Positions 45,401-60,908 are shown, counted from the stretch's first letter. The stretch is DNA of 64,000 nt from Phoronis australis (GCA_002633005.1 NMRA01000121.1:280847-344846), one strand, 5' to 3'. Numbers and translations: made by a program. Notes: a model not told the origin generated them from the sequence alone.

Positions 45401-48400
45401 TATATACCCTCCCAATATGTCAGGAATTTAGTGAATTGGAAATTGGCGAATTTTGACTATTTGTTGACATTATTTTGTGAGAAGATGAGCTGTAAGTGTC
45501 ATAGTAGGACCTGCATATAGGTCAGCAATATAGGTCAGCAATATAGGTCAGCAATGTGGGTCAGCAGCCTCGAGCTGCTATACATAAAGCAGCATCACAC
45601 CAGAAGGTGTTTTCTGTCAATAAACCCAAGTTTTGATTTAGGCCACTGACCATTATAAAATTGATCTCAAATCGGTCGTTTGTCAAAACAAGTATGATTT
45701 CTGTGCTTGGAAAGAGCTGTCAGTTTGTTATTTGCTCAGAGTGAACTGATAAATCTTCAGCCTAGAGAGTGAAGGACAACACACGATAATATTAAGTGGT
45801 CTGACTCAAAACGTTTTTTGATAGATTATACTAGGGATATTCCTGACCAGGTTTGAATCTGTGCCCTTTGGGCACACCTGATGATAAAAAGTGTGCCTTT
45901 TTCAAAAAGTTGTGCCCAGAAGTGGTAACATATGAAACAGAAACTTCAACGGTAATCGAAATAAGAACAAAGTCATGTTTTACCTGACTGGCTGTAAGTT
46001 GAATGGAATCTTGCATTTTTGGAAGAGTAATGTGCTTTATGCTGCAATATACTTGTGCTTTTTTATTTTTGTATGCGCTTATGATGCAAAGGCGCAGTCC
46101 AGAAATATCCCCTGCAGATACCATGACTTAAATCTCACTGTAAGCGACACCAATTCACGAGACCTGCCCATTTCAAAAGTACAAGTATGTAGCAACACCA
46201 CCAACAGAAAGTTACCAACTAACTTGGGTGAGTACACCATTGATTCCACTTCGTGTAAATCACTTTTTTCCCTTTACCGGGTACAATTAAGGGTTCAAAT
46301 TTTAGACAAACTGAAAGCTATCTTGGTCATATTCATTAAGTTGTGATCACCTTGGGTAAATCTGTCAAATGTCAAACAGAAGGAGACCTTTACAGGTACA
46401 GCATTCCAAGGGTGTGACTCGTGATTCTCTTTTGTTCAGAGATTCTCCACAGCTTTACATAGTATGTACCATGTAACATGCATGACTCAAACATTTGGAA
46501 AAACATTCTCTGAGCAAGGCAAGAGAATTTTGCGATAACCTATGACACAGGCTGGATCATTTTAGTTTCGGAAGATTGTCCAAAGTTACACATGACAAAT
46601 TCACCCAAGGTTGAGAGCGGTGGTCAAAATACCATAACTGAGCTACACATTCACAGAAATGAGCTACACACTCACAGAATACTGCAGAACTTTGTTCTAG
46701 ACACTCAGAGTAACAGTAACTATAAAAACAATTTGCTACAAATATTCAGTTTTAGTGAATGATTCATCACATTTATACACAAGTAAGACCATTCAAAACT
46801 AAACAACTAAATAAAATTTACAGGCAGTAAATAAAATTCTTCAAGGTTGGGTTGTATAGAGATTAGCAAAGTTCTGCAAATCCACTGGACTTCTAAGTCT
46901 TTATTGATAATCTATTTTGAAGATGTTAAGCTGTTGCTTCAAAAGGTCAAATGTTGTTTTTGTAACTACCAAGCTTAAAAGGTATGAGGATAAGACCAGA
47001 CTTGACATGGAGGACAATAGCAACTTCTAGTTGTCCAAAAGTTTTGAAGACCACTTTCACATAATNTCTGTGCCCTTTGGGCACACCTGATGATAAAAAG
47101 TGTGCTTTTTTTCAAAAAGTTGTGCGTAGCAGTGGTAACATATGAAACAGAAACTTCAACGGTAATCGAAATAAGAACAAAGTCATGTTTTACCCGACTG
47201 GCTGTAAGTTGAATGGAATCTTGCATTTTTGGAAGAGTAATGAGCTTTAAAAGATGCGCCCAGGGGCGCACTGCTGCAATATACTTATGCTTTTTTATTT
47301 TTGAATGCGCTTATGGTGCAAAGGCACAGTCCAGAAATATCCCCTGTAGATACCATGACTTAAATCTCACTGTAAGCGACACCAATTCACGAGACCCGCC
47401 CATGTCATATTTCAAAAGTACAAGTATGTAGCAACACCACCAACAGAAAGTTACCAACTAACTTGGGTGAGTACACCATTGATTACACTTTTTCCCTTTA
47501 CCGGGTACAATTAAGACTTCAAAGTTTAGATAATCTAAAAGCTATCTTGGTCATATTCATTAAGTTGTGATCACCTTGGGTAAATCTGTCAAATGTCAAA
47601 CAGAAGGAGACCTTTACAGGTACAGCATTCCAAGGGTGTGACTCATGATTCTGTTTTGTTCAGAGATTCTCCACATCTTTACATAGTATGTACCATATAA
47701 CATGCATGACTCAAACATTTGGAAAAACGTTCTCTGAACAGGGCAAGAGAATTTTGCGATAACCTATGACACAGGCTGGATCATTTTAGTTTCGGAAGAT
47801 TGTCCAAAGTTACACATGACAAATTCACCCAAGGTTGAGAGCGGTGGTCAAAATACCATAACTGAGCTACACATTCACAGAAATGAGCTACACACTCACA
47901 GAATACTGCAGAACTTTGTTCTAGACACTCAGAGTAACAGTAACTATAAAAACAATTTGCTACAAATATTCAGTTTTAGTGAATGATTCATCACATTTAT
48001 ACACAAGTAAGACCATTCAAAACTAAACAACTAAATAAAATTTACAGGCAGTAAATAAAATTCTTCAAGGTTGGGTTGTATAGAGATTAGCAAAGTTCTG
48101 CAAATCCACTGGACTTCTAAGTCTTTATTGATAATCTATTTTGAAGATGTTAAGCTGTTGCTTCAAAAGGTCAAATGTTGTTTTTGTAACTACCAAGCTT
48201 AAAAGGTATGTGGATAAGACCAGACTTGACATGGAGGGCAATAGCAACTTCTAGTTGTCCAAAAGTTTTGAAGACCACTTTCACATAATCAATAACAGGC
48301 ACTATTCAGTAATTGGTTGGTTCACAAAGTCATTGCTCAATAAAAGTGATCATTAACAAGTTAATGCAAGGATTGACGTTGTTAGTTATTTGGGTTATGT

Positions 48401-48887
48401 GGTTAAAAACTGAATCCAGGCTAATTTGCATTGCCAAAATGCAGGAGCACCAACAACAGTGGAGTTGAGACAATAGGGATAAACCTACTTTTACCAGCCT
48501 GCTTAACACAACAGTATATCAAAATTACAATAGGAATGTTCAGCCTGGTTGCAATTTAAATCTGTTAGTTATTGACTGTCGTGACAAGTCTTGTTATTCT
48601 GTTCATTTCTCACACAGTTCACACAAATGAATTTTAAATTATTTATGAAACTATTATATTAGGTATAAACACAGACTAGAAAAACATCATTAAACATCTA
48701 TAACGCATATCGATGTCTGTAAGACGTAGCCCAACAACGCCAATTCAATAACAATTCAAAATAATTTATCTATAAAAGCAGGAAGTGATTAGCTAGTAGT
48801 GGTAAGTAGTTTGACATTTGTTCACAGTTGTTGCAGAGTTGAGTACTCACTCTGAAGCTCCCGGGATACAACGCCGGTTGAAGTCAT
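175..48887 (-). CDS. CARMIL: CARMIL / LRRC16 (capping protein, Arp2/3 and myosin I linker; F-actin-uncapping protein), 28 coding exons in window, 3' end beyond left edge
   Basis: GT-AG exons with consistent phases: 48851-48887, 45135-45232, 43691-43744, 34082-34141, 32396-32523, 31539-31707, 26020-26093, 25504-25579, 24730-24818, 24177-24271, 23248-23441, 21080-21339, 20322-20473, 19404-19503, 18323-18377, 17044-17147, 15281-15418, 13716-13908, 7999-8139, 7181-7297, 6633-6695, 6255-6367, 5135-5222, 4059-4196, 3621-3690, 3010-3105, 1241-1390, ~175-433. Translation is colinear with recalled human CARMIL1: PH domain, [30 protein letters not shown], LRRs, EQAYRLQQG, helical domain, CPI motif. Confidence 0.95.
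1028..1161. repeat. Palindrome with 45-bp arms carrying hammerhead-ribozyme-like (Penelope-type) motifs
   Basis: Arms 1028-1072 and 1117-1161 (1 mismatch); internal hairpin GGACTGTAG-a-CTACAGTCC followed by GAAACG. Confidence 0.75.
1241..1390 (-). CDS. CARMIL: CARMIL exon 27
   Basis: [13 protein letters not shown]...[12 protein letters not shown]; tttag / GTATG. Confidence 0.8.
3010..3105 (-). CDS. CARMIL: CARMIL exon 26 (phase 1-1, possibly skippable)
   Basis: [31 protein letters not shown]; ctag / GTGAGT. Confidence 0.75.
3621..3690 (-). CDS. CARMIL: CARMIL exon 25
   Basis: [23 protein letters not shown]; ctcag / GTAAAA. Confidence 0.85.
4059..4196 (-). CDS. CARMIL: CARMIL exon 24
   Basis: [12 protein letters not shown]...TPDDDRSEP; open frame, AG/GT, phase 0-0. 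Confidence 0.85.
4561..4615 (+). mobile_element. 3' fragment of the same SINE family
   Basis: gcacacgtctggtacaacatgtaacagatcgcctgcattatttt is nearly identical to 21778-21822. Confidence 0.7.
5135..5222 (-). CDS. CARMIL: CARMIL exon 23
   Basis: [29 protein letters not shown]. Confidence 0.92.
6255..6367 (-). CDS. CARMIL: CARMIL exon 22
   Basis: [20 protein letters not shown]...[11 protein letters not shown]. Confidence 0.9.
6633..6695 (-). CDS. CARMIL: CARMIL exon 21
   Basis: [21 protein letters not shown]. Confidence 0.9.
7181..7297 (-). CDS. CARMIL: CARMIL exon 20
   Basis: LLPKLQQVA...[21 protein letters not shown]. Confidence 0.9.
7999..8139 (-). CDS. CARMIL: CARMIL exon 19
   Basis: [16 protein letters not shown]...[13 protein letters not shown]. 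Confidence 0.92.
9198..9243. repeat. (GAAT)n microsatellite
   Basis: atgaatgaacgaatgaatgaacc...gaatgaatgaat. Confidence 0.85.
10272..10330. repeat. (TTA)n microsatellite
   Basis: attattattattatt... Confidence 0.9.
13716..13908 (-). CDS. CARMIL: CARMIL exon 18
   Basis: [14 protein letters not shown]...[27 protein letters not shown]. Confidence 0.95.
14359..14537 (+). mobile_element. MITE family A (termini aattgacctatcgc...gcgataggtcaatt)
   Basis: TIRs present; related copies at about 23030-23149, 50608-50781 and 59832-60050. Confidence 0.8.
15281..15418 (-). CDS. CARMIL: CARMIL exon 17
   Basis: [45 protein letters not shown]. Confidence 0.95.
15566..16020 (-). mobile_element. 5'-truncated non-LTR retrotransposon (I/R1/Loa-group-like ORF2 C-terminus)
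   Basis: ORF 15616..16002 has [10 protein letters not shown] and a CCHC knuckle [18 protein letters not shown]; 8-bp direct repeat gggaatta at 15558-15565 and 16021-16028. Confidence 0.85.
17044..17147 (-). CDS. CARMIL: CARMIL exon 16
   Basis: [34 protein letters not shown]. Confidence 0.95.
18323..18377 (-). CDS. CARMIL: CARMIL exon 15
   Basis: [18 protein letters not shown]. Confidence 0.92.
18430..19238 (+). mobile_element. Dispersed repeat, Helentron/HINE (DINE-1)-like, with tandem aagtttcat-aaaatcc cores
   Basis: 18980-19235 is clearly homologous to 25660-25936 (aatagat.cctat.tgccaa.tttatgaaaatc...gagttttggagatagagcag...gacgga...ataaaa); similar cores at about 33290-33900 and 44040-44190. 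Confidence 0.55.
19404..19503 (-). CDS. CARMIL: CARMIL exon 14
   Basis: [32 protein letters not shown]. Confidence 0.93.
19865..19980 (+). repeat. Dispersed repeat shared with about 16048-16125 (+) and about 60555-60665 (-)
   Basis: attagaatt....cacc.taatag...tttttgctgtt..cagaatt.gccgtc.tgacggga. Confidence 0.55.
20322..20473 (-). CDS. CARMIL: CARMIL exon 13
   Basis: QLLLGISVN...[23 protein letters not shown]. Confidence 0.95.
21080..21339 (-). CDS. CARMIL: CARMIL exon 12
   Basis: [14 protein letters not shown]...[22 protein letters not shown]. Confidence 0.95.
21585..21826 (+). mobile_element. tRNA-derived SINE
   Basis: Pol III A box TGGCCTGGTTG and B box GGTTCAAGTCC; AT-rich tail; 11-bp TSD tcatgtgggat at 21574-21584 and 21827-21837. 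Confidence 0.85.
23030..23149 (+). mobile_element. MITE family A partial copy (3' half)
   Basis: acgaaggtgt...atcctggcgataggtcaatt. Confidence 0.6.
23248..23441 (-). CDS. CARMIL: CARMIL exon 11
   Basis: LRR: [20 protein letters not shown]...[11 protein letters not shown]. Confidence 0.95.
24177..24271 (-). CDS. CARMIL: CARMIL exon 10
   Basis: [31 protein letters not shown]. Confidence 0.95.
24636..24751. repeat. 31-bp tandem repeat spanning the CARMIL exon 9 donor
   Basis: catccttacctgcctagtcctactccactca, about 3.7 copies. Confidence 0.9.
24730..24818 (-). CDS. CARMIL: CARMIL exon 9
   Basis: [29 protein letters not shown]; AG|GTAAGG donor. Confidence 0.9.
25504..25579 (-). CDS. CARMIL: CARMIL exon 8
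   Basis: [25 protein letters not shown]. Confidence 0.95.
25660..25936 (+). mobile_element. Second copy of the HINE-like repeat
   Basis: Aligns by eye to 18980-19235. Confidence 0.55.
26020..26093 (-). CDS. CARMIL: CARMIL exon 7
   Basis: [24 protein letters not shown]. Confidence 0.95.
27930..29225 (+). mobile_element. Kolobok-like non-autonomous element (TTAA TSD, AGG...CCT ends, about 270-bp inverted termini, THAP remnant), nested in the 4.9-kb element
   Basis: TTAA at 27926-27929 and 29226-29229; inverted repeats 27930-28203 / 28955-29225; frameshifted THAP motifs [22 protein letters not shown], then CQVC...[13 protein letters not shown]. Confidence 0.85.
28196..28915 (+). pseudogene. 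Frameshifted, truncated THAP-domain transposase N-terminus
   Basis: Fragments in different frames ([21 protein letters not shown]; [13 protein letters not shown]; [19 protein letters not shown]; [10 protein letters not shown]...C..GH..W); no DDE core. Confidence 0.75.
30574..30680. repeat. About 53-bp tandem duplication inside the 4.9-kb transposon
   Basis: atgaatcatagcRgagctgaccagcgactagcattagttcgtcgaattgcgc, 2 copies. Confidence 0.9.
31539..31707 (-). CDS. CARMIL: CARMIL exon 6
   Basis: [14 protein letters not shown]...[27 protein letters not shown], a CARMIL signature. Confidence 0.95.
32396..32523 (-). CDS. CARMIL: CARMIL exon 5
   Basis: [12 protein letters not shown]...[11 protein letters not shown] within ORF 32392..32619; AG/GTAAG. 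Confidence 0.9.
34082..34141 (-). CDS. CARMIL: CARMIL exon 4 ([20 protein letters not shown])
   Basis: ttctag / GTAAAA; resembles LELTFSYLEIHGV. Confidence 0.9.
34567..35220. mobile_element. TTAA-type MITE (Kolobok-like GG termini)
   Basis: TIR gggggtttgacatagttt / aaactatgtcaaaccccc; flanks ttca (mutated) and ttaa. Confidence 0.75.
37296..37454. mobile_element. Tc1/mariner-type MITE with TA TSD and internal TTAACCGCCC subrepeats
   Basis: ta|ccgtaaacgttcgggttaacgccc...gggcgttaacccgaacgattacgg|ta. Confidence 0.85.
39644..40053 (+). mobile_element. Left part of a longer element related to the 37296 MITE, cut by the assembly gap at 40054
   Basis: cgtaatcgttcgggttaacgcccatgctcagttaaccgcccacccc and further TTAACCGCCC repeats; no right TIR before the N. 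Confidence 0.65.
41410..42210. repeat. Minisatellite with a 39-40-bp unit (tgtgaagattcactatattctcactttagtgaacacatc), about 17 copies
   Basis: Direct tandem repeats; these explain the repetitive ORFs at 41574-42223. Confidence 0.95.
43691..43744 (-). CDS. CARMIL: CARMIL exon 3 ([18 protein letters not shown])
   Basis: tacag / GTATG; resembles VLTSCRAFLVTARIPTK. Confidence 0.9.
45135..45232 (-). CDS. CARMIL: CARMIL exon 2 ([32 protein letters not shown])
   Basis: tttcag acceptor, GTGAG donor; PH-domain start. Confidence 0.9.
45858..48289. repeat. 1.2-kb direct duplication joined at a single N (47066), probably two haplotypes
   Basis: 45858-47065 versus 47067-48289, near-identical with a few SNPs and indels. 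Confidence 0.9.
48851..48887 (-). CDS. CARMIL: CARMIL exon 1 ([12 protein letters not shown])
   Basis: ATG at 48887-48885, donor A|GTGAGT; resembles human MTEESSDVPRELI. Confidence 0.85.
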
Positions 48888-49271
48888 TATTTTTATGTTT
48901 GGAAGAGCAATATCTCCTAAGCTCACAGTGACTTTTTATCAATGAAAGAAAACTTTTAGAGCTTTATCAGTTGCACACTTAGTAACAAAATGTTGCGGAA
49001 GTGAGCGAGGGAGTGTCCTTATACGCCATGATGTTGATGGTATACGTCATGCATGATGAACCACAAAAGCTTTTAAGTTCTGAAGAATCTGCATATTGTT
49101 TACTCATTTTTAGAAATTATGTGGCCTCTTGTCAACTGAAATTACAAACCAAATATTTGAATGTTGTAAATAAATAGGTAATTCTCCGGTTCAAGGGAAT
49201 AATTTTTAATTCTTAAAATATTACTTGCGTATTGAAGCGACATCTGTGTGTTGTGCTTGAAAGTTGACGAA
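48888..49271. promoter_or_regulatory. Putative bidirectional promoter / 5' UTRs shared by CARMIL (-) and COQ9/GLMN (+)
   Basis: Divergent ATGs at 48887(-) and 49272(+), 384 bp apart; ETS/GABP-type CGGAAGTG at 48996-49003 and a CRE-like ACGTCA near 49045. Confidence 0.7.
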
Positions 49272-49329
49272 ATGTCTCAACTGTGCTTGCGTTGTGTTGG
49301 AGTTCTCAGGCACCAAATTTATTCTCTTG
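49272..49329 (+). CDS. COQ9: COQ9 exon 1 (MSQLCLRCVGVLRHQIYSL), mitochondrial presequence-like
   Basis: ATG with A at -3; strong G|GTAAGA phase-1 donor that matches the phase-1 acceptor at 54533. Joined peptide MSQLCLRCVGVLRHQIYSLGLRHLSTTKLRCS is Arg/Leu/Ser-rich with no acidic residues. Confidence 0.78.
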
Positions 49330-52300
49330 GTAAGAATTGCGAAGCGCGAATGGTTGCAGAATGCCTTTCTATGCTTCAGAACTTTTGGGCTTCCTATTTC
49401 GTTACATTTTCGTTCACATTTATCGCCAACTGGCGAGTTCTTGTAACCCACCTCATTCGGCATTCACATGACTGGTGTGGCATGACGAGTCATGACCATC
49501 GGCATCGGCCGCTCGGCATCGCTTTCACAGACACAGTTCAGACTGTTCAGAGCCTTGTTGAGGACCACCAACCCTGCCTCATAGGTCAGGATTGGTAGAC
49601 AAAATACACCGGTCTCGGAAAACAGCCTTAACTCTTGTTGCTATGCATTTTATGCATGTAAATTACGTAACGTGGTTTTATTGACTTTTATTCAGTGGAA
49701 CTGGAAGCAAAGAAATGACTTCAGTTTTACCATCATTCATAGACATTTTCGCTGTCTTAACAGGCCATTGGGACAGTGAAGCTCCTACAGGCTATAGGTA
49801 CTTCCCACGCCGGAAGCTTTTCGGCAAATTATGCCTCACTCTGATTAAAACATCAAAGTCACATCGTTATAAGTACCTGTTGTGCATAGAGGGATACCTT
49901 AGCCGCCCTTAGGTCTTAGGAGGCTTTGAATGTATTTAATTCCTTCTAACTCGAACAAATACCCTTTTTCAAGCAGTCCTTTGTTCAGTAAATCAGTAAC
50001 TGGCCATTTTTAACTTTGCTAGCACTCCTTGATTGTAACGTGAGTATTTGCGTGAGTTGGAAGGAATTAGACATCGACGGCCTGCTGAGGACTGTGAGGT
50101 GTCCCTCTATGCGCAAAAGGTACTTATAACTACAGGGCTTTGATGTTTTAATCAGTATGAGGCATAATTTGCTGAAACGCTTCCGGCGTGTGAAGGCCCT
50201 ATAGATGCTTGAAATCTGTAAAATGCAGGATTACCTTTTTGTTGCTATTGCAACTTGCAAGCAACTTGACAGTCGCGGGTCACTATCAAAGCTTTTAGTG
50301 TACATCACTGACATCAATAACTTAAATTTTAGGAATTTTAAAAATTCAATTGTATTTAATTAATGATTTAATAGAAAAATTTATCCTCTATGAAAATATT
50401 CAGCATACAGGCGCATTTGGCAGAGTCTGTCAAAAGCTCCTGTGTTGTACATTCACTAGCAAGGAATCGGGCATCTAGAAAATTTCACGTCACCCTTCCA
50501 AATCTCAGATACCAAGAAACGAAACAGTTGTGTAGTCGTGTATCACCTTTTCATTTAAAATTCATCCAAGTTCATGGAGTGGTAAATTTAAGCAGTCACT
50601 ATGTTGGAACTGACCTTTCACAAGCTCCGCGCCCTTGCGAAAAGTCGACAACAATAGGCTTTACCCAACAATGCGTTGTTTGTCGGGTAAAATGTCGTCT
50701 TGGAAACGAAGGTGTGTGAAGAATGCGGCATTCTATTTGGTCAGTTAAGCCGTCACTCAAAATCCTGGTGATCGGTCAACTGAGGTGCTGAAGACTTGAC
50801 CAGTGGATGTATCAATGCTATTCGTTGCAACCACTTAGGACTGGCACATCGTTAACTGTGTGAGAGGATTGTTTCATGCCACAATTAGAAGGTGACAGCT
50901 TGTTGGCTACAGAATGACTTTCACTTGGACCCTCTTCATGTTGCAGGAATTTGACAGCAGAAAGAAAGAATTTGCATTACTTCAAAGTCGAACCATGGAG
51001 GATGACGAAGCTTATAGTTTACTGGCCAAGATAAAGCAAGAGTTGGCTGAGGAGAACATTGATGAGCTGAAGAAGATAATATTGAATGCTGACTGTCGAC
51101 AACACTTTGTTGCCATTGGGTGGGACTTGGTTCCAGAACTGTCTGCCTTCTTGACTGATCAAGTCAAATGTCGGAAACCGAATTTACTGTATGCCTGTGA
51201 GGATTTGCTAATCTGTGTTGCCACTTACGGCAATGCTAAGGAACTTCTGTTGGCGTATTTAGAACAGTTAGATCAGTTTAAAGAGGATGTTAAATTCAAG
51301 ACACTGCTTCAACCTCTTCAGATTTGTCTGGCACGGTTACCGGCTAAACGTCAGCACTCTTTCGATATCACCTTGGAGACTGTGTATGCACACTTGCTAG
51401 CACTGCCTAAACCTGAATATCATGACCTAGAAGGTGATGAGAAGGCATTGTTAGAAACTGATCCTGATGTTGTGCGAATATGTGAGGTGGTTTCCGCGGC
51501 GTTAGATTTTATCAGTCCATTTGTGGAGGAAGTGGAAACATGTAGGAGAGGGCTAGTTGATGAGACAGAGCTAGATTCCAAAGTTACGTTTCAACGACTT
51601 CAAATAGCAAGATTCTTGCTCCGTATTATTGATCACCCTTTGCGTTACACCAGTTTGGAATTAAGGGAGGGAGGTACGATTAAGAGCAGTATGAGAATTG
51701 TGTCAGAGACATTGATGGTGTTTCTTGCAAAATTGTTCGGTGATTTCCAGGTGATGATTATGGAGATCATTTCTAGTAATCACAAAATTGTGGAGAATCA
51801 CCTCGATAGTGACAATCAAGAGGAAAAAGTATTTGCCGAGGAAAAAATCAGCGATGTTGCTTTGGGGTGTTTCTTGTACCTGTTGCATCATGAGTTCATA
51901 TGCATTAATAGCTTTGCTTACGTCATCAGTAGCTGGAGTAGACTGGAAACAAGCTTGATTTACATAACAGCTCTGTTGTCGGATGATCATGCCTATGTCA
52001 CTGCTAAGGGAGTCTTGCTAGCACAGACACTAATTGGTAATATCGTCGATGGTGTTTTGCCCGAGTCTGTCCTTGATATGCCCAAGTGCAGCAGTTTTAT
52101 CCGTGCAATGATTCAGGTGATGACCTATTGCCCATCAAAAGAAGTGCGACAAAATGCAGTCAAGATAGTCCCTAATCTGATATCAAAGTTTTGCACCAGT
52201 GGTCGAGCCAAACTTCTCATCTTTGTTCTCAGCGTAGCTACTCATGCTGGGGTACTTGGATTTGCCATCAATCTACTGAAAGAGGAAATTAATCGCAGCT

Positions 52301-55300
52301 TGAACTCCTCTCCTGAAGACAGCATTCCGAATAAAACCATTAAGTTCTTCTTCCAGCTAGTCTTTCGTCTTCAGGACGGTGCAGCAACTGACCTTCTGGA
52401 CAGATCCGACAGAATCATGGCCGCTTTGAACCTGTTGCGTTTTCTAGTCATTCGTGACAGATCGAGTGAAGACCACACAGGAATATGGTCCATTTTACCT
52501 ACAGTGGAAAGAAATTTTCTTGAACCGCTGCGAACTGGTTTAGATATGTCGCGAGCCCACTATCAACTAGAACTAAAGGGTATACAGAATGAGAAGAATG
52601 ATGAACAAGGTCTGCAGATGTCGCTAAGTGTTGGAGGGCAAACCATGCCCAGTGTGGACAGTAAACAAAAAGTGGAGATGTTACAACTGGCCTTGCATAC
52701 CTTTGATATGATGGACAGTGTTCTGGGCCGTGTTAATGAACTGATAACATGTAATAAGAAGTCAGTTTAAGCTTAGAATGTTACTGAGTAGGGTATACTA
52801 GTTAGTTTTCCTGTTGACTGTATACGCATTTTGTACTATCCTGCAATAAACAGTATTTTTGTTCTGTTATTAATTGAACTTTTCCATGATGCCAAATTTT
52901 TTCTTCAACTAATTTGCATTGTCAAAAGTTAGAATTTCTAATTTTTCCCAACCTTTTGTTTGTTGTGATTTGCAAAAAACTCAATGTTTACTTTTGTCAG
53001 TATCATCGTTTGCTGTCAGTTCACAAACTCAATCTATTTGAATCTTTCAATAATAAATTAATCTGACTGTGCGTACAGTTTCCAAGGTATTGTTCGTAGC
53101 TACATAACTACTCTTTGACAATACGTCCTTTTTTAAACACTGCTTGCTGCAGGCAGCTATGGGTTGAGCAAATTTCCATGTCAGATGTACATGTTGGCTG
53201 TCAAAAATCAAGACCACTGATTCAGAAGTTTTCATGTAAAGTCGAAGTCTTTGATTTTTGACAGTCGAGTTCTTGGGCTCAAAGGCCTTAAAAAATCCCA
53301 GACACCGTTTTGTAGGTAATAGACCAAATAAACAGAATTTACTACAATCCTAGGAAAAAGTTCGACCTGTGGAAGTTATGGCGGTCTCCATGGAAAATCG
53401 TGATTTTTTACGAAAAACATCACGTGATTGCAAATGTTCGAGCAACATTTTCGTTTACATTACCGACTTCCTGATTACCATGGATACAAAATGGCAATCA
53501 ATATTTCAAAAGGTATTAAAAGAAACATGGCCCTCGGTAACCATGGTAGTCAGTTACCCTAATTCGAGTACAATGAACTTTCTTGGATGGATCAAAAACT
53601 ACATTTTATTGCTTTTATGACCATTTGTCACGCTATGGTAATTCTTGAGGATGAAAGCACAAGTCAAAAAAGGTTTGTCATCTAGTTTTATGAAAATGTT
53701 TCCCATTTAGGGATATTTTAGCTGAGAAACCTGCTACCATTTAAAGACGATTAAAGAAAAAAAATTTTGGAAAAACTTCATGTCCATCTCGGATATCTCC
53801 GTAGTTCGAGGCTAAATCACTTTTGCACGGGATTTTTGTTGTGTCACTAAAGCCCATTTTGCTCATTAAGCTAATTCTTCACCTATTTAACACATTTTAT
53901 TAAATGTAACGCATGTGTTTTTGATCAGTTTAGTAGAATTTCTAAACAAAAATAAATTTAATCCAGTCTCAGCATTGTCTCTGTCTAGACACCACATGGT
54001 TGATTTTTGGTCATTAGAACTGTAGGAAGGTTCATGTAGCCAGAATTAAGATGACAATTTTGCAGCGCGTTCTGTGCAAGATCCTTGAAGAATCACCATA
54101 GATCTGCTATTTTCTTAGTTTTAATGGCTGTGATTAAAGAGAAATGTTTAGAGATAAGTACCGGCCATGCTCTACTTATCGCCTACTCCTGAAATGTCCA
54201 AAAATTCAGTTGAGTGCCCGCTTTGGGTTACCCACCTTCAATTTAATGAGTTTTCCATTCATATTTTGAGGAAGCAGCATTTTTATGTTGAATTATATTG
54301 GAAACGTGTGTAACACATAACTGCCTCACTTTGTCAGCTGAGTTTGCCAACACAACTCTGTTAGAGCTTTGCGGATTCTCTTTTCTGAAATCAAGGAATG
54401 TTTCCTTTGGTTTTATGCAGGCAATCTGTTAACATTTGTTAAGACTGGATTTTTGTAACTGATTCATTTATTCGATCAGTATGTTATAGTTTTGAAAAAG
54501 TTTACAGTGCCTCTCAACTAAATTGTTTACAGGACTGCGACATCTGTCGACAACCAAACTGAGATGTAGCATAGATTCACAGACCCAGTCGGAAAACAAT
54601 AGTGAAGAAAAAGAAGAGCGTGTTAAAGAGACCATCCTGACGACCGCCCTGAAATACGTAGACAAACATGGCTGGACACAAGAGGCATTGTCTCTAGGTA
54701 TGTTGATGGTCGGCCAATCACTTGTCAGCTTTCACTTCAGTGGGCTCAGTCTGCCTAAGTCATCACCTTCCTTGCCTCCCATTGTTATGTTGATGGTCGA
54801 CCAAACACTTGAGAAATGTGGTAATAAAAGCTTTTTCACTTAAACTGTCATCAGTCTGTCGAAGTCATCACCTTTCTTGGCTCCCATTGTCATGTAAAAG
54901 TTTTGGTTACGTCATTTTTAAAAGTCGTCATTTTCACGTAACTCCTCGCTCAAAAGTAATCCCATGACTATATGCGAAAATTTTCGCCACATTGAACTTG
55001 TGCGCTGGTTATAAAATATTTTGCCAAGCACTGTTGATAGAAATTAAGAATCCCATGAAAAATACAATTTACTTCTTCGTATGGTTAACTCCTATAAATT
55101 TCGAACAAAAGTAATCGCCAAAATCACTCTCTCATTTTTCAAAGGCTTTAACGTTGTTACGAATGGCCACAATTTCTCAGAAGCATTTGTCTGATGGTGG
55201 CTGTGATATAGATCTTTAGAAATATGTAGCATTTATGTCGTGCTACTAATCTCTTATGAAAAAATGAAATTTCACTTGTTGGCCTTATTTGTAAGATTTT

Positions 55301-58300
55301 ATCTTGCTTAAGGACTTAACAAAATCAATGTGCCTGTTGGAATTTTTGCTGAAGTTTTTCACAAAAACGTGAGGACATGGGTTTAGCCATTCGTATCGTA
55401 CACTTGTTGAAAGACATATATTCAACCAATAATCCGTAATGTAGGTAGAGCAGTGGTAAGGACAGAATGGGTATGTGTGAATTTTATTATTAAAAAAATT
55501 AATCTCCAGTGTCGCACTTCATCCACAATTTGAAAATTATGAATGCACGTTACTGTACATCACTTCCTGCTGTGTGTCTTTCAGGTGCTGAAGAATGCGG
55601 TTACCCTGGCATTGCCCACGGTATGTTCCCTGATGGTGGAGTGGAGCTAGTCCACTTTGTATACAGAACCAACAACGAGAAGCTTGCAGACATACTGAGA
55701 AGTGAGGTGGCAGAGGCTGAACAAAACCCTGACTTGTACGTTAAGATTTGTCGGTAGTCTCGGTGCAATGACCACACAATTAGTTGGTGGAAAATGAAGG
55801 GAAATGCACTGGATTCATCCTAATATGCAGCTAGACCAGATACAATGGTGTTATGCTTTCTAGGGCTTTGTGAGCTTAACACAAATTATTGAACATCATA
55901 ACATTTCTGATTACCGCTTGAAAACATATTGTAAGATTAAGTTTCCTTTTAATGTTTTTTACGAAAAAGGCAATGTACTGTAATAAGTCTAGAGTTCGGC
56001 CCAGAAAGTACCAGATAGATTTTTCCGTATCTTTTTATACTGACCTGATATGAATACACTTCCTTGTTTCAATGGGTTTTGCAAAAATATGGACATTGTG
56101 TTTCTGTTTGATTCGTTTGCAACGGAGTGCTGAACTTGGCACACTGTTGAACTTTTAATTAATGAAACATCTCGTTGCTTAGATGTTGAACCATGGTCAC
56201 TCGAGTGGTTTTGCCTTTTCTAGTTTAACTGCAGAATGACTGTGTTCATCTCCATTCATGACACAATATCATCAATGAATGTTTGTTTACAGAAAGAAGT
56301 CAACTCAAAGATTTACTACAGATGCACTGAAAACTAGGCTGGAAATGACTATACCTTACCTAGACATATGGCCGCAGGTTGGTATGTTTCTTGGCCACTC
56401 GTGTCCCATAGGGAATGGATGTCCTGTTGGGATTACCAGCTGAGAATCCTTTGATCAATAGATGGAATGATGGTTTCATTGTAGACTAGTTGATAAGGTC
56501 TTGCATAACCTTAATACACTGAAATCAACCATGGTTTTCTTTCACTTGTATTTTCATCCGGTTTGATTGATATCGGTGATATACTGGTTAAAGCAAGGTA
56601 TTTATGCTGAACAGATTAAGTATCCAAGGAGTCGATTCCCTGGTCAGAGAAGCTGCTGTTTCCGGGATCTTCTGCAGAATTTCAACTCAGTTCATTGTGA
56701 AATCACCTCTTTGCTTAGCATAGTCCTATCCTTAACAACAAAAAATTCAGAAGTAACCATGATGATGGTCTTTAAATCATGGGCAGGTTTCATTTCAAAG
56801 GTGCACTGATTTGTAAAACCACCATTTCTGTAGGTTACTCTTTTGACCGTTGTTTGGTAATAGATACGCTATGCAAATCATGCTAAAAGCTATGTAAATT
56901 CTGCTGAGAAGTTATTTTTGTGGAGAAATTTGTCAAAATGAAATTTTACTTGTCCGCCATATTGTGTCCCAAACTGAAGAACTTTAACCAGTATTCATTC
57001 CCTCTTTTCATTAGTTGGTTTCATTCTGCTTTGGATGACCCCATCCCACAATCCTCTGTAATGTGACCTGTGTAGCTATCTGTAAAAAGGTCTATTATGT
57101 GTTGTTACTTACTCCACCTGCAGGCGATGGGACTAATGACTCTTCCACAGAACGTACCAACTGCCCTACAGAACCTGACACAGTTAACTGATGATATCTG
57201 GTACCATGCTGGTGACAGAGCAACTGATGTGGGTATTAAACCAATTGAAAGAGTACAATCATGTTTTTTTGTTGGGAAATGGCTTCGACTTGATTGTGAA
57301 GTATTGGGGGTAGTGTTATAATTTCTGTTCTGTAAGTCAGGTTAAACTGAAACTCAAATCTTCGCTACAACTTGTAGATATTACCTTATGAATTGATGGA
57401 CATTGTAACTAGAAAATTCACCCTTTGAACTTGTTCTTTTCTTTCTTTTGAAACTTTTGGACTAAAATGAAGTTTGTGTTTCACCATAAGTGACAAGTGT
57501 ATTACTTTGATGAGATAAAGCAAGTTACTGTACGTAGAGGATGCCATGCTGATAACACGGGCCTTGCTCATCATTTGCAGTTTACCTGGTACACAAAACG
57601 AGCGTCACTGGCCTTTGTGTACAAAACCTCGGAGCTATCTCTCATACAAGACAAATCTGAAGGGTTTAAAGACACGTGGGAGTTCATGAACAGGAGAGTG
57701 GAGGACGTAGTCACCGCTGGCAAGCGTTATCACCAAGTACGTGACAACAGAAAGCGGTTATTAATTAAAATAAATTGTCCATTAACGTGCATTTAGAGTG
57801 TGAATCTATTCCTAATATGAAATTACCTGACTTTCTAAGTTTTATTTCATGCACTTACCCTGTCGTGTAGGCGTGTTTCACATATTTTAAGTGTCCGTCA
57901 CAAACACACCCGCAGTCTTGCTTAACTTGTTGACCTTGATAAAAGTGATGACTAAACTTAGTGATGACATTTTCACAAATGTAGGCATGCAAGGAAGTGT
58001 GTCAACTTGTGCAGACTGACGAGTTGTCTGATGATGAGTTAAACAATTTGGTAGAGTGACGGTAATAAAAAAATTTATTTGTTTGACATTTTTCATTTGC
58101 TGCCTGTTTACTGTTCAAAGAGCAAAACTTTGGCCGAGACTGGACTTGAAAATTGGCCAATCTCGTTGTTTGGAATTTGAAAGTTTACTTACTTCAGTTG
58201 GTTAATGTTCGAGTGAAGCCTCGGGTGACGTTTGGTGATTGATTACTATCTTGCCAGGATTAGAAAGATGTTCTAAACAATTGTTCTGAACAATTTTGCT

Positions 58301-58825
58301 GTCTGCTTTGTTTGCCCTTTGGCTCACAGTATAGTCTAAGATTCTATTTTCAGGTTGGACAGTCGACAGAGGTGTTGAGCGAAGTTGTAAAAAATGCCAG
58401 TATAATAGTAAGATAAACAGATTCAATTTGCTGCTGTCAAAATCAATTAAACTTTAAATATGACCCCATAGGAATAGCTGTCTGACAGCATTCCATTGGA
58501 AAGAGGTTTTGCTTGGGTTCTACATTTCCTAGCTTGTGTTACACAACTTGAGTTTACTCTTGGGTTGTACCTACCATGCAGTCTGATTAACTTCTTGGTG
58601 ATAACAGTATTGCAATACCTAGGTGACATCTACTATATTGGCCTAGGGAATGAACATCACATTTTGATAAATTTTGACCTGACAATAGCCTGGATGCAAT
58701 ACAAGATGATACAAATGTGAAATGTTCTTTATTAACTTGCCTCTTGATTGCATTGATACTACAGCTGCTACATTTTGATTTTCCAGGTGAAGAATCTTAT
58801 TGGAGTTAATGACCGGAATAGGTGA
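49272..58825 (+). CDS. COQ9: Ubiquinone biosynthesis protein COQ9, mitochondrial (8 exons, 270 aa)
   Basis: Exons 49272-49329, 54533-54697, 55585-55735, 56293-56377, 57124-57228, 57581-57736, 58354-58407, 58787-58825. Phases are consistent (813 nt). Motifs ILTTALKYVDKHGWT, DDIWYHAGDRATDFTWYTKR, QDKSEGFKDTWEFM and C-terminal VKNLIGVNDRNR match recalled COQ9. Confidence 0.93.
49792..50204. mobile_element. MITE with about 65-bp imperfect inverted termini, in COQ9 intron 1 upstream of GLMN
   Basis: cacgccggaagc...gcaaattatgcctca..ctgattaaaacatcaaag versus ctttgatgttttaatcag..tgaggcataatttgc...gcttccggcgtg. Confidence 0.75.
50608..50781 (+). mobile_element. MITE family A copy (diverged)
   Basis: caagctccgcgcccttgcgaaaagtcgac...ggaaacgaaggtgtg...ggtcagttaagccgtcactcaaaatcctgg. 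Confidence 0.75.
50914..50946 (+). promoter_or_regulatory. Splice acceptor for the GLMN exon (branch-like TGAC, pyrimidine tract, ttgcag|G at 50946/50947)
   Basis: atgactttcacttggaccctcttcatgttgcag|GAA. Confidence 0.7.
50995..52770 (+). CDS. GLMN: Glomulin (FAP68/Alf4 family; RBX1-binding cullin-RING ligase inhibitor), single-exon CDS of 591 aa
   Basis: Within ORF 50914..52770; Kozak ACCATGG at 50995. Recalled glomulin motifs: IGWDLV, GNAKELLLAYLEQL, VMTYCPSKEVRQ, HAGVLGFAI, DLLDRSDRIMAALNLLRFLVIRD, TGIW, FLEPLRTGLDMSRAHY, ALHTFDMMDSVLGRVNELI. Length is close to human GLMN. Confidence 0.95.
   Translation: MEDDEAYSLLAKIKQELAEENIDELKKIILNADCRQHFVAIGWDLVPELSAFLTDQVKCRKPNLLYACEDLLICVATYGNAKELLLAYLEQLDQFKEDVKFKTLLQPLQICLARLPAKRQHSFDITLETVYAHLLALPKPEYHDLEGDEKALLETDPDVVRICEVVSAALDFISPFVEEVETCRRGLVDETELDSKVTFQRLQIARFLLRIIDHPLRYTSLELREGGTIKSSMRIVSETLMVFLAKLFGDFQVMIMEIISSNHKIVENHLDSDNQEEKVFAEEKISDVALGCFLYLLHHEFICINSFAYVISSWSRLETSLIYITALLSDDHAYVTAKGVLLAQTLIGNIVDGVLPESVLDMPKCSSFIRAMIQVMTYCPSKEVRQNAVKIVPNLISKFCTSGRAKLLIFVLSVATHAGVLGFAINLLKEEINRSLNSSPEDSIPNKTIKFFFQLVFRLQDGAATDLLDRSDRIMAALNLLRFLVIRDRSSEDHTGIWSILPTVERNFLEPLRTGLDMSRAHYQLELKGIQNEKNDEQGLQMSLSVGGQTMPSVDSKQKVEMLQLALHTFDMMDSVLGRVNELITCNKKSV
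52845..52850 (+). terminator. GLMN polyadenylation signal AATAAA (intronic relative to COQ9)
   Basis: AATAAA 75 nt after the GLMN stop, followed by T/GT-rich sequence. Confidence 0.7.
54533..54697 (+). CDS. COQ9: COQ9 exon 2
   Basis: tttacag|; LRHLSTTKLRC...ILTTALKYVDKHGWTQEALSL; G|GTATGT. Confidence 0.93.
55585..55735 (+). CDS. COQ9: COQ9 exon 3
   Basis: AEECGYPGIAHGMFPDGGVELVHF. Confidence 0.93.
56293..56377 (+). CDS. COQ9: COQ9 exon 4
   Basis: KKSTQRFTTDALKTRLEMTIPYLDIWPQ. Confidence 0.93.
57124..57228 (+). CDS. COQ9: COQ9 exon 5
   Basis: AMGLMTLPQNVPTALQNLTQLTDDIWYHAGDRATD. Confidence 0.95.
57581..57736 (+). CDS. COQ9: COQ9 exon 6
   Basis: FTWYTKRASLAFVYKTSELSLIQDKSEGFKDTWEFMNRRVEDV. 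Confidence 0.95.
58354..58407 (+). CDS. COQ9: COQ9 exon 7
   Basis: ttttcag|VGQSTEVLSEVVKNASII|GTAAGA. Confidence 0.85.
58787..58825 (+). CDS. COQ9: COQ9 exon 8 (VKNLIGVNDRNR*)
   Basis: ttccag acceptor; resembles human C-terminus LKNLTGLNQRR. Confidence 0.88.
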   Translation: MKNLIGVNDRNR

Positions 58826-59337
58826 TGGAAGGATGGATCAAGAAATATCATACTGGAAAGTTCAAGGTCTTTATTTTTGCATGACTTTTAAGCCCGTGGC
58901 ACTTGATTAGTGCGTTGCGCTTATGAAGATCATGTGATTGTGACTTGTTCAAGGAGTGGTTTGTGATCTGCTGCTCAGTTGGGGCACTAGTTATTGAAAA
59001 AAAGGACTTCTTGTGCACAGATAATCCTAATAATTATCTGTGTGGTGCACCTCATCAGGTCTCAACAGCTGTTCAGTGAACTTAGTATCTGAAGTGTGGT
59101 TGTTAGTGGACCTGTTCTGTAGCACTAGACATTTGCCATTAAAATCTATTACAACCTTATGCAGTGTTAGCTTAAGTCAAAGTGTGAAATGGACAATTGT
59201 GTTGATGACTCTTAAGGTTTTCCATTAATGTGTATACACAGGGTGACTTTGTTTGTATCACTAAACAGGATTATGAATCTTTGTAATGGAACATGCTATG
59301 TTACATTCATTAAAAGCTTAAAATTCACTGTTTTGTT

Positions 59338-59343
59338 AATAAA
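59338..59343 (+). terminator. Candidate COQ9 polyadenylation signal AATAAA
   Basis: AATAAA about 510 nt after the stop codon, with GT-rich sequence downstream. Confidence 0.5.
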
Positions 59344-59831
59344 ATTAAAGACAGTTCCAGCGTCCTTGATGACACTTTTTCAGGTGTGTTTTGATTTTGA
59401 TGTGGATGTTCATCAATGTTTGCAGTATTTTCAATCAAATTAGATTAACATTTTGTAAATAGTTTTGTGTGACCCCATGCAGTGCTAATTAGGTAAAGTT
59501 GACACTTGACAATGCGAGTCTCAAACAGGTAACAAGTCATATTTTGAGGTGATAAATCAAGCCATGCCAACAATTGACGAACTAACTCCACTCATTTCAG
59601 ATATGTGTAGTCTGTAAAAGATGAGGCACAACCATGACGCATTAAAAGCCTCTAAAAATGTTCCACACTAAACAAAAACCAAAACTAACTCAAGGTGATG
59701 CTGCGTGTGACTTGAGATAGATGCGCGGTTTTGTAAACTCCTGGCTCATAAAATCGATCTTGTAATATTCGTTACCATGGTAGGATTCTATTTCTGTTTC
59801 CAACAAAAACACAAACTTTAAGACTATCAGC

Positions 59832-60050
59832 AATTGACCTATCGCCAGGATTTTGAGTGAAAGCTTAACTGACCATTTAGAACGCAGCATTATGAACACA
59901 CCTTCATTTCCAAGCCCCTATTTTACTCGACAAACATGTTCTGGAGAAAAGGTTCGTCATTGGTCTCTAGAGGCATTGTAGTATGCGATTGTCACTTATT
60001 GTTTGTTGGTCGACATTACGCAAGGGGTTGGAGCTTGCGATAGGTCAATT
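59832..60050 (-). mobile_element. MITE family A copy
   Basis: aattgacctatcgcc...gcgataggtcaatt; interior is the reverse complement of 14359-14537. Confidence 0.8.
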
Positions 60051-60706
60051 CAAAAAGGGCTTCAAAGTTCATTGGGGTTTAGTTGGCCAGCCCTAAAATA
60101 GCAAATTCAGAAGTGGCACATGTACGCATTGGCTGTGACTCAAGTTACCAGCTCATTTGGCAACAACTGAAGATCGAATGGGCATATTTTTAAAGGCCCA
60201 AGCACTTAGGCTAAGAATGCAATGTTGACAGCTAAACAATGACAAGATGCCGTGAAACTAACTACTTGAACTACACTGACAATGTTTTGTTTTGGCAGCA
60301 CACATGGCCACATTGCAGGAGACCCAACTCTCGATTTGGCCCTATATCGTCAGTGAAGGGAACAATCATGGATCTAGAACCTAGTCAGGGTTCATGATGA
60401 CCACACTCAGTACCCTCCCTAGTTATGTTTTGTTGTGATCTTGTCTATGATTTGTTGTATATCATTGTCAATTGTCAAAAACTTAAAATTTACTTCAGAA
60501 AACATCCAGTAACCAAGAATTAGTGGCGAAAGTATTTCTAGTTGTTATACAGTACAAGACAAAAGTAATCGGACAAAATACCATCTTCCCGTCATGACGG
60601 CCAATTCTGTGAATAGCAAAAATGGAAGTTGACTATTATATGGCTGACAAAATTCTAATTGAAGAATGCCTTAGCCACCTTCTCGTAAATTCTCCTTCAT
60701 TCTCAG

Positions 60707-60908
60707 TCTTGAGCCACAATGACAGGTATTACTATTTCATTTTGTCCTCTTGAGCCACAATGACAGGTATTACTATTTCATTTTGTCCTCTTGAGCCACA
60801 ATGACAGGTATTACTATTTCATTTTGTCCTCTTGAGCCACAATGACAGGTATTACTATGTCATTTTGTCCTCTTGAGCCATAATGACGTATTGCTATGTC
60901 ATTTTGTC
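60707..60908. repeat. Tandem repeat with a 41-bp unit, about 5 copies
   Basis: tcttgagccacaatgacaggtattactatttcattttgtcc. Confidence 0.95.

Follow-up and report, generated by a model that had tools for sequence, protein, structure and literature searches.

A glomulin gene nested in the first intron of COQ9 is spliced from the COQ9 first exon in Phoronis australis

A 64,000-nucleotide stretch of the Phoronis australis genome (NMRA01000121.1:280847–344846 of assembly GCA_002633005.1; hereafter the window, with positions counted from its first letter) contains an intronless gene for glomulin (GLMN) within the first intron of COQ9. RNA reads confirm that one first exon is spliced to two acceptors, giving two unrelated messages, and that both splice joints are present in every run. 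It is very likely that a single exon 1 (49268–49329), probably served by one promoter, is joined either to the glomulin exon lying in intron 1 or to COQ9 exon 2, and this layout was probably inherited from an ancestor shared with insects. Glomulin binds RBX1 and inhibits cullin-RING ligases, a function known for the human protein.

RNA evidence for the shared first exon

The RNA data comprise three stranded raw-read runs (X1, X2 and X3; values below are given in this order) from one study carrying the same species label, with counts taken from about a fifth of each run, together with one older contig set. Reads were mapped to 47200–61000 and, more closely, to 49107–54625, with a threshold of three reads in the joint table. 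The joint between exon 1 and COQ9 exon 2 (49329 to 54533) is carried by 27, 28 and 24 reads (79 in total) and by one contig; it spans the entire glomulin exon, which is thus located wholly inside COQ9 intron 1 and on the same strand. The joint between exon 1 and the glomulin exon (49329 to 50947) is carried by four, six and one reads (11 in total) and is therefore present in all three runs. These reads have GT..AG boundaries, four, four and one start places, 55–61 nucleotides on the shorter side and derive from the sense mate exclusively. The glomulin share of exon-1 joints is 11/90 (12%, 95% range 6–21%). The complete table for 49107–54625 holds nine joints, of which two are the splice joints from 49329 and the remaining seven fall in repeats; no other joint into 50947 is found in this region in the three runs, nor does any joint reaching the three-read threshold connect glomulin with COQ9 exon 2. 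Five further COQ9 introns are seen as joints, and the sixth, 57736 to 58354, is seen in 16 reads of X3.

An earlier sequence-only reading of this DNA had proposed that exon 1 is common to both genes and that a single transcription unit gives two unrelated messages, naming the two junctions as the RNA check and, as counting against it, a separate GLMN start in 49600–50990 with no reads from 49329 to 50947. The 11 and 79 junction reads, found for both joints in three of three runs, uphold this proposal.

Read depth at 50959, just inside the glomulin exon, is 7, 6 and 1, and 11 of these 14 reads arrive through the exon-1 joint. An operon resolved by spliced-leader trans-splicing was also considered as the main route and was rejected, since those 11 reads join genomic exon 1 by GT..AG; a minor leader may still occur among 187 loose-end rows beyond those listed. 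The non-repeat bins of the intron 5′ of glomulin are near-empty, with depths of 0, 0 and 0 in 49475–49658, 0, 0 and 0.1 in 50211–50394 and 0, 0.83 and 1.07 in 50395–50578, and the reads on both strands in intron 1 stem from an element resembling a miniature inverted-repeat transposable element (MITE) at 49792–50204 and from a dispersed repeat at 50608–50782. Coverage of glomulin is sense-only, with mean depths of 6.5, 6.9 and 5.7 compared with 21, 18 and 31 over the COQ9 exons, corresponding to ratios of 0.31, 0.39 and 0.19, and both messages occur in three of three samples.

Read ends pile up at 49268, 4 nucleotides 5′ of the COQ9 ATG (six of 20 molecules in X1), and X1 reads of both joints reach this position, with 61 nucleotides on the exon-1 side, which suggests an unusually short 5′ leader. 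At the other end, depth falls to 0, 0.18 and 0.05 in 52787–52970 and X1 coverage gives out near 52740, short of the stop codon; the 3′ end of the glomulin mRNA appears to lie close to the stop codon. Sense reads are also seen just 5′ of COQ9 exon 2, at 54075–54442, in X3 only (depths 0.68 and 2.36), and may represent unspliced precursor or a minor internal start.

Gene identities and layout of the locus

A sequence check of the window showed that the coordinates previously proposed for exon 1, the glomulin acceptor, the glomulin open reading frame (ORF), the AATAAA hexamer and COQ9 exon 2 all hold. The first ATG lies at 49272 and the exon 1 donor follows 49329 (phase 1, TTG followed by gtaaga), the acceptor of the glomulin exon ends at 50946, the glomulin ATG lies at 50995 and COQ9 exon 2 starts at 54533. 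The glomulin ORF (50995–52770) forms one coding exon of 591 amino acids, read without joints. It matches Pfam family PF08568 (E 1e-40) and human glomulin (PDB 4f52_E; E 2e-62 over residues 10–590), and this full-length match to both a profile and a solved structure establishes membership in the glomulin/YBP/ALF4 family. The joined COQ9 gene consists of eight exons that give a 270-amino-acid ORF ending at 58825, with Pfam domains PF21392 and PF08511. The two proteins are unrelated (PF08568 versus PF21392 and PF08511; no COQ9 match to stand-alone glomulins at E <1).

The stop-to-stop frame that runs through COQ9 exon 2 has its first Met at 54700, in intron 2, and none within the exon itself, so COQ9 needs an ATG exon further upstream. 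Exon 1 is the sole COQ9 start available and hence codes for the host. As had been anticipated from the sequence, it completes a plausible presequence: the first 33 residues of the joined protein contain five Arg or Lys and no Asp or Glu, a composition that fits a predicted mitochondrial presequence. The features of the nested pair are as follows.

49268–49329, plus strand: shared exon 1, from which both joints leave at 49329; it holds the COQ9 ATG and the first 19 codons of the predicted presequence and forms the 5′ leader of the glomulin mRNA.
49330–54532, plus strand: COQ9 intron 1, 5203 nucleotides, containing the whole glomulin exon; GT..AG joint supported by the reads and the contig given above.
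49792–50204, no strand assigned: MITE-like element with 108-nucleotide inverted arms, 86% complementary (inverted-repeat analysis); reads on both strands.
50608–50782, no strand assigned: dispersed repeat with copies at 14359–14538 and 59831–59936 (repeat comparison), the origin of the two-strand reads just 5′ of the acceptor.
50947–50994, plus strand: 5′ non-coding part of the glomulin exon, with the stop of an upstream ORF at 50952–50954 (sequence and reads).
50995–52770, plus strand: intronless glomulin coding sequence (CDS), 591 amino acids; sense-only depth 2.7–11.3.
52845–52850, plus strand: AATAAA followed by a T-rich tract, a candidate intronic poly(A) signal; depth is near zero from 52787.
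54533–54697, plus strand: COQ9 exon 2, phase 1 start, with the rest of the presequence and the COQ9_N domain (Pfam, joints).
55585–55735, plus strand: COQ9 exon 3 (joints; insect-built COQ9 profile, E 3e-15).
56293–56377, plus strand: COQ9 exon 4 (joints; insect-built COQ9 profile).
57124–57228, plus strand: COQ9 exon 5 (joints; insect-built COQ9 profile).
57581–57736, plus strand: COQ9 exon 6, with PF08511 (Pfam; joints; insect-built COQ9 profile).
58354–58407, plus strand: COQ9 exon 7 (joint 58407 to 58787; open frame; the upstream joint is the one seen in 16 reads of X3).
58787–58825, plus strand: COQ9 exon 8, coding part to the stop (joints; open frame).

LRRC16/CARMIL lies head-to-head with COQ9, with 384 nucleotides separating the two ATGs. 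The coding part of its exon 1 occupies 48851–48887 on the minus strand (ATG at 48887, GT donor at 48845–48850), with an RNA contig piece covering 48851–48944 on the same strand. Its minus-strand exons run from 48851–48944 to about window position 150, and the downstream ones match the LRRC16A structures 4k17 and 9ec0 with E values of 7e-10 to 7e-22. A bidirectional promoter is likely between LRRC16/CARMIL and COQ9, and some 300 nucleotides of promoter seem to serve three genes. Elsewhere in the window there is a 41-nucleotide tandem array at 60666–60911 and a 1.1 kb tandem duplication, 94% alike, at 45990–47065 and 47200–48289, which flanks the N at 47066 and is possibly an assembly join.

Upstream reading frame and translation of glomulin

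One point was missed by the sequence-only reading. When exon 1 is joined to 50947, the COQ9 ATG opens an upstream ORF (uORF) of 21 codons that stops at 50952–50954, 40 nucleotides before the glomulin ATG, and in the window allele exon 1 is out of frame with glomulin. All 14 reads at 50959 carry a 4-nucleotide deletion at this site, which is downstream of the uORF stop; in this read allele the two start codons share a frame and are separated by one TGA, with C as the next base. The uORF stops after 21 codons in the window and read alleles alike, which rules out in-frame sharing of exon 1 with glomulin. Among the read differences listed in the glomulin CDS, 11 of 15 are synonymous.

The COQ9 ATG has the weaker context (G at −3, T at +4), while that of glomulin is strong (A at −3, G at +4). 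As the uORF stop precedes the glomulin ATG, no presequence is fused to glomulin, and we infer that the protein is made by leaky scanning or re-initiation and lacks a mitochondrial presequence. A stop codon in the last exon spares a message from junction-dependent nonsense-mediated decay; the uORF has its stop there, so the glomulin message would escape this decay.

Linkage in insects and age of the nesting

A profile search returned 903 glomulin relatives at E 0.001, of which the best 150 were examined. The model P0133 from Epargyreus clarus (844 amino acids) consists of glomulin residues 1–581 followed by COQ9 without its start. When the COQ9 part of P0133 was searched against proteins of 464–1477 amino acids, 29 of the 30 matching insect models were found to carry glomulin in front of COQ9 (16 from Lepidoptera, six from Hymenoptera, three from Coleoptera and four from Diptera); the query, a butterfly COQ9, favours insects, so that the dearth of non-insect fusions is uninformative. 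Among the junctions listed, the COQ9 part of the fused models begins without the COQ9 start. An Atlas cluster of 96 proteins, mostly from arthropods, has the COQ9 domain in 95% and the glomulin domain in 85% of its members. Sharing of a short first exon offers a simple account of these fused 'glomulin-like / COQ9' models, which are likely to be predictions, or minor splice products, that miss the COQ9 first exon.

A related order of genes is seen in Drosophila, in which CG30493 is COQ9 (PMC5455201) and one P insertion is recorded as an allele of both CG30493 and CG30496, following FlyBase practice for gene overlap (PMC4978919). In the FlyBase tables of PMC4528329 the 3′ end of CG30496 is at 2R:7701878 and the COQ9 3′ untranslated region (UTR) is at 7702980–7703501 on the same strand, 1.1 kb away, and the transcription start site (TSS) identifier of COQ9 directly precedes that of CG30496; these identifiers appear to run by position. 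CG30496 has 635 codons, the size of a glomulin. CG1399, which is LRRC16 (PMC2375033), lies upstream of CG30493 on the opposite strand and forms the same divergent pair as CARMIL and COQ9 in the window.

The window glomulin shares 35–39% identity with nemertean and annelid proteins, its nearest named relative being at 39%, and about 23–30% with full-length insect glomulins. In three trees, one of them a quick mixture tree, it clusters with named spiralians (Shimodaira–Hasegawa-like approximate likelihood-ratio support of 88 and 91), with the insects apart (100 and 99). A spiralian placement of the window protein is the best one, with moderate support; a placement among non-insect ecdysozoans would likewise make the nesting older than insects. 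The window is the one non-insect case of glomulin–COQ9 nesting that was seen, and a homologue search with a single COQ9 exon as query gave no match. The glomulin/COQ9 pair is real and read-supported, and it is probably ancient.

Intronless glomulin in other animals

A metagenome scan provided 22 glomulin loci from other animals (L001–L022; 143,472 nucleotides). Glomulin is a single ORF of at least 599 amino acids from the first Met in 16 of the 22 (L002–L017); of the others, L001 and L018 are incomplete, the gene is split in L019 and L020–L022 contain multi-exon glomulin. An automatic filter placed an acceptor-like site 12–19 nucleotides 5′ of the glomulin start in eight of 11 loci, and in L013 and L017 an acceptor that it passed over is visible by eye. 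The latter are the two metagenome loci included in the named-taxon tree, where both fall among annelids. No COQ9 was detected in the 22 loci by tblastn or by an insect-built profile that recovers five of the eight window COQ9 exons blind; the flanks are mostly short (0.4–5.8 kb downstream, compared with a gap of 1.76 kb in the window), and those informative beyond 2 kb are L002, L006, L010, L012, L013, L014 and L017. Pfam was run on 148 of the 195 flank ORFs of at least 60 amino acids.

Two loci show other neighbours. In L013, PYCR exons (6326–8419, plus strand) lie 3.6–5.7 kb downstream of glomulin on the same strand, with the first coding (ATG) exon behind an acceptor, so that glomulin may be inside an intron of the PYCR 5′ UTR. 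In L017, two internal ACOT8-like exons (515–654 and 1243–1468, plus strand) lie upstream of glomulin on the same strand and ACOT8 is unfinished at that point, so that glomulin may be inside an ACOT8 intron. Each of these two neighbours was detected in a single locus. The donor (phase 1) of the first ACOT8-like exon in L017 would be in frame with glomulin. Judging from these sequences, glomulin is widely found as a single exon led by an acceptor, and its neighbours have changed.

The sequence-only reading had further suggested that a retroposed GLMN landed in COQ9 intron 1 and captured its promoter. The present data do not establish this. The linkage is common to four insect orders and glomulin is intronless in 16 of 22 other loci; together these imply that any retroposition was ancient, and a recent retroposition into COQ9 is unlikely. 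The window CDS does have the retrogene feature of lacking introns while relatives such as L020–L022 are multi-exon. No A-tract is present in 52851–52900, and no flanking direct repeat occurs among the 20 repeat families listed of 23, both being marks that decay in old copies. Ancient retroposition and a DNA move with intron loss are indistinguishable on present data. Separately, Choloepus didactylus has a second, shorter 'glomulin-like' model on a different contig (P0006 and P0010), possibly a sloth retrocopy.

Proposed mechanism and alternative explanations

Use of the near acceptor (50946) would commit the transcript to end at the intronic poly(A) site near 52845 and so to give glomulin mRNA, which would account for about one in eight messages by joints or one in four to one in six by body depth, while skipping of this acceptor would give COQ9 mRNA. 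The near acceptor and the intronic poly(A) signal would compete with the far acceptor, and this competition would set the ratio, as proposed for CPNE1/RBM12 (PMC2568002). On the glomulin message, the COQ9 ATG, with its weaker context and very short leader, would open the uORF, and glomulin would then start at its own strong ATG. The arrangement most likely persists as housekeeping promoter sharing: glomulin is without a first exon of its own here and depends on the host promoter, so that separation would cost its expression and the linkage would last. A regulated switch would not be required. The earlier claim that the two products are mutually exclusive holds for the single transcript only: both messages are present in all samples, and the data show no regulated switch.

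Several observations weigh against this account. The glomulin joint is carried by 11 reads in all, one of them in X3, from a single study; the exon-1 joint accounts for no more than 11 of the 14 reads at 50959; and the junction share of 12% is below the body-depth share of 16–28%, so that a second glomulin start may exist. The sense reads at 50395–50578 (X2 and X3) and 54075–54442 (X3) are unexplained. The RNA animals show many fixed differences from the window and therefore belong to a different population or to a closely related species. As regards age, the fused insect models give order and strand and not the position of COQ9 exon 1. CG30496 is putatively a glomulin, which its length fits. 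CG30493 and CG30496 have separate TSS records in fly and are absent from the FlyBase shared-exon lists (no matches in 12 files in which a positive control was found), and exon-1 sharing itself may be lost or unannotated there. Glomulin lies away from COQ9 in annelid-like loci, so the linkage is not obligatory. Finally, the approximately unbiased test does not reject a group of the window glomulin with insects (p 0.17), and for this reason we only infer that the nesting dates to the protostome ancestor, which is older than about 550 million years.

Some of these points could instead indicate that the nested gene is driven mainly by its own intronic promoter, as annotated in fly, with the exon-1 joint as a minor leak. 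The separate FlyBase TSS records, the junction share below the body share and the low sense depth at 50395–50578 in two of three runs would all fit such a promoter, and the repeat at 50608–50782 masks part of the region in which it would lie. It is nevertheless quite improbable, as most of the reads at 50959 arrive through the exon-1 joint, no other joint enters 50947 and the bins at 49475–49658 and 50211–50394 are empty or nearly so. Another possibility is that the locus has been retained as a regulated switch, in which either the uORF or the choice between splicing and polyadenylation decides between coenzyme-Q synthesis and inhibition of cullin-RING ligases. The long conservation of the linkage, the variation in ratio between runs (0.31, 0.39 and 0.19 by depth; 4:27, 6:28 and 1:24 by joints) and the uORF as a ready control point make this conceivable; it is unlikely, since both messages occur in every sample and the read numbers do not suffice to establish a difference, glomulin and COQ9 are not known to be connected by any pathway, a literature search found no paper on the two together and several annelid-like loci lack the linkage. 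To our knowledge it is also absent in vertebrates.

Glomulin–COQ9 fusion proteins might themselves be real products, in the window as elsewhere, given the 29 fused insect models, the 96-member cluster and eight lepidopteran models of 466–473 amino acids that share one joining point, near glomulin residue 199. This explanation is very improbable: no joint leads from within or behind glomulin to 54533 in the three runs at the three-read threshold, the longer fused models join at scattered sites near the glomulin C-terminus in the manner of gene predictors, the residue-199 joint falls at a conserved Gly-Lys whose codons are able to spell a donor consensus and so fits a cryptic donor, and a stand-alone 584-amino-acid glomulin model exists in the same species. 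The eight models in question (P0162, P0164, P0165, P0167, P0171, P0172, P0174 and P0175) possibly reflect a real, low-level cryptic-donor splice. Hardly more credible is a lineage-specific glomulin retrocopy that inserted into COQ9 intron 1 and took over exon 1 independently of insects. It would agree with an intronless CDS where multi-exon glomulin exists (L020–L022), with the mobility implied by other neighbours in annelid-like loci and with the fact that no second spiralian with the linkage was found, but it would demand two independent landings in one gene, on one strand, in front of the same exon and each next to a divergent LRRC16, which is improbable. The protein moreover resembles a long-diverged orthologue, at 39% identity to its nearest named relative, the AATAAA is not followed by an A-tract and intronless glomulin is widespread.

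The shared-exon account can be extended to a more far-reaching scheme, which we regard as doubtful. A promoter-less, one-exon glomulin cassette would have resided in COQ9 intron 1 since the protostome ancestor, within a CARMIL–COQ9–glomulin block on one short bidirectional promoter; the COQ9 ATG would act as an output-setting uORF, a regulated splice/poly(A) choice would tie cullin-RING ligase inhibition to coenzyme-Q gene activity, and in annelids the cassette would have moved with its acceptor into PYCR and ACOT8.

Comparison with known systems

No published description of the glomulin/COQ9 pair was found in a literature search outside subscription journals, and the main text of a survey of ancient microsynteny does not mention it (PMC3514665). 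The locus is a read-supported addition to the short list of nested pairs that share a first exon, and is probably among the oldest. It indicates that a cytosolic protein can borrow the coding first exon of a mitochondrial gene minus the targeting signal, the host ATG being turned into that of a short uORF. Insertions, deletions or exon-1-directed knock-downs at COQ9 in fly or other invertebrates may also affect glomulin, and the locus is suited to tests of splice-versus-poly(A) competition and of uORF control, fly included.

The Drosophila CG1399–CG30493–CG30496 group has a similar layout, with divergent LRRC16, COQ9 and, overlapping COQ9 on its strand, a gene of some 635 codons whose end precedes the COQ9 3′ UTR; it differs in its separate TSS records and in not being listed as exon-sharing in FlyBase. 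The majority of such pairs have been followed within vertebrates or within insects, and ChAT/VAChT is the classic cross-phylum case. In that pair the shared exon is non-coding, whereas here it carries the host start codon. ITGA1/PELO and DHRSX/ZBED1 may share a host-coding exon, although a literature search on ITGA1/PELO found no paper on this. ChAT/VAChT resembles the present locus in having a single-coding-exon gene in the first intron of an unrelated gene, a layout described as conserved in nematode, fly and mammals with alternative promoters and splicing (PMC3053374), but its products serve one common pathway, while no link between COQ9 and glomulin is known.

CPNE1/RBM12 is similar in its shared promoter and first exon(s), in the guest CDS being contained in one large exon and in the choice being attributed to splicing and polyadenylation; it belongs to 24 human pairs with shared 5′ exons, including ITGA1/PELO and ZBED1/DHRSX (PMC2568002). 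Its shared exons are non-coding and are traced in that source only to zebrafish; at the present locus, by contrast, the shared exon is coding in the host, and the linkage seems to extend across insects and one spiralian. In Su(var)3-9/eIF-2gamma (PMC4528330) an intronic guest likewise uses the host promoter and first coding exon, giving two unrelated conserved proteins, with re-fission in some lineages. The shared exon is in frame in both of those proteins (80 residues), in contrast to the 21-codon uORF found here, after which glomulin starts from its own ATG. The same source counts 130 fly genes that share a promoter and non-coding exons, and ten pairs and a triplet that share in-frame CDS. 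The glomulin/COQ9 locus has the core features of first-exon-sharing nested pairs and fits neither the CPNE1/RBM12 nor the Su(var)3-9/eIF-2gamma subtype exactly, because the shared exon is protein-coding in the host but serves the guest as a uORF.

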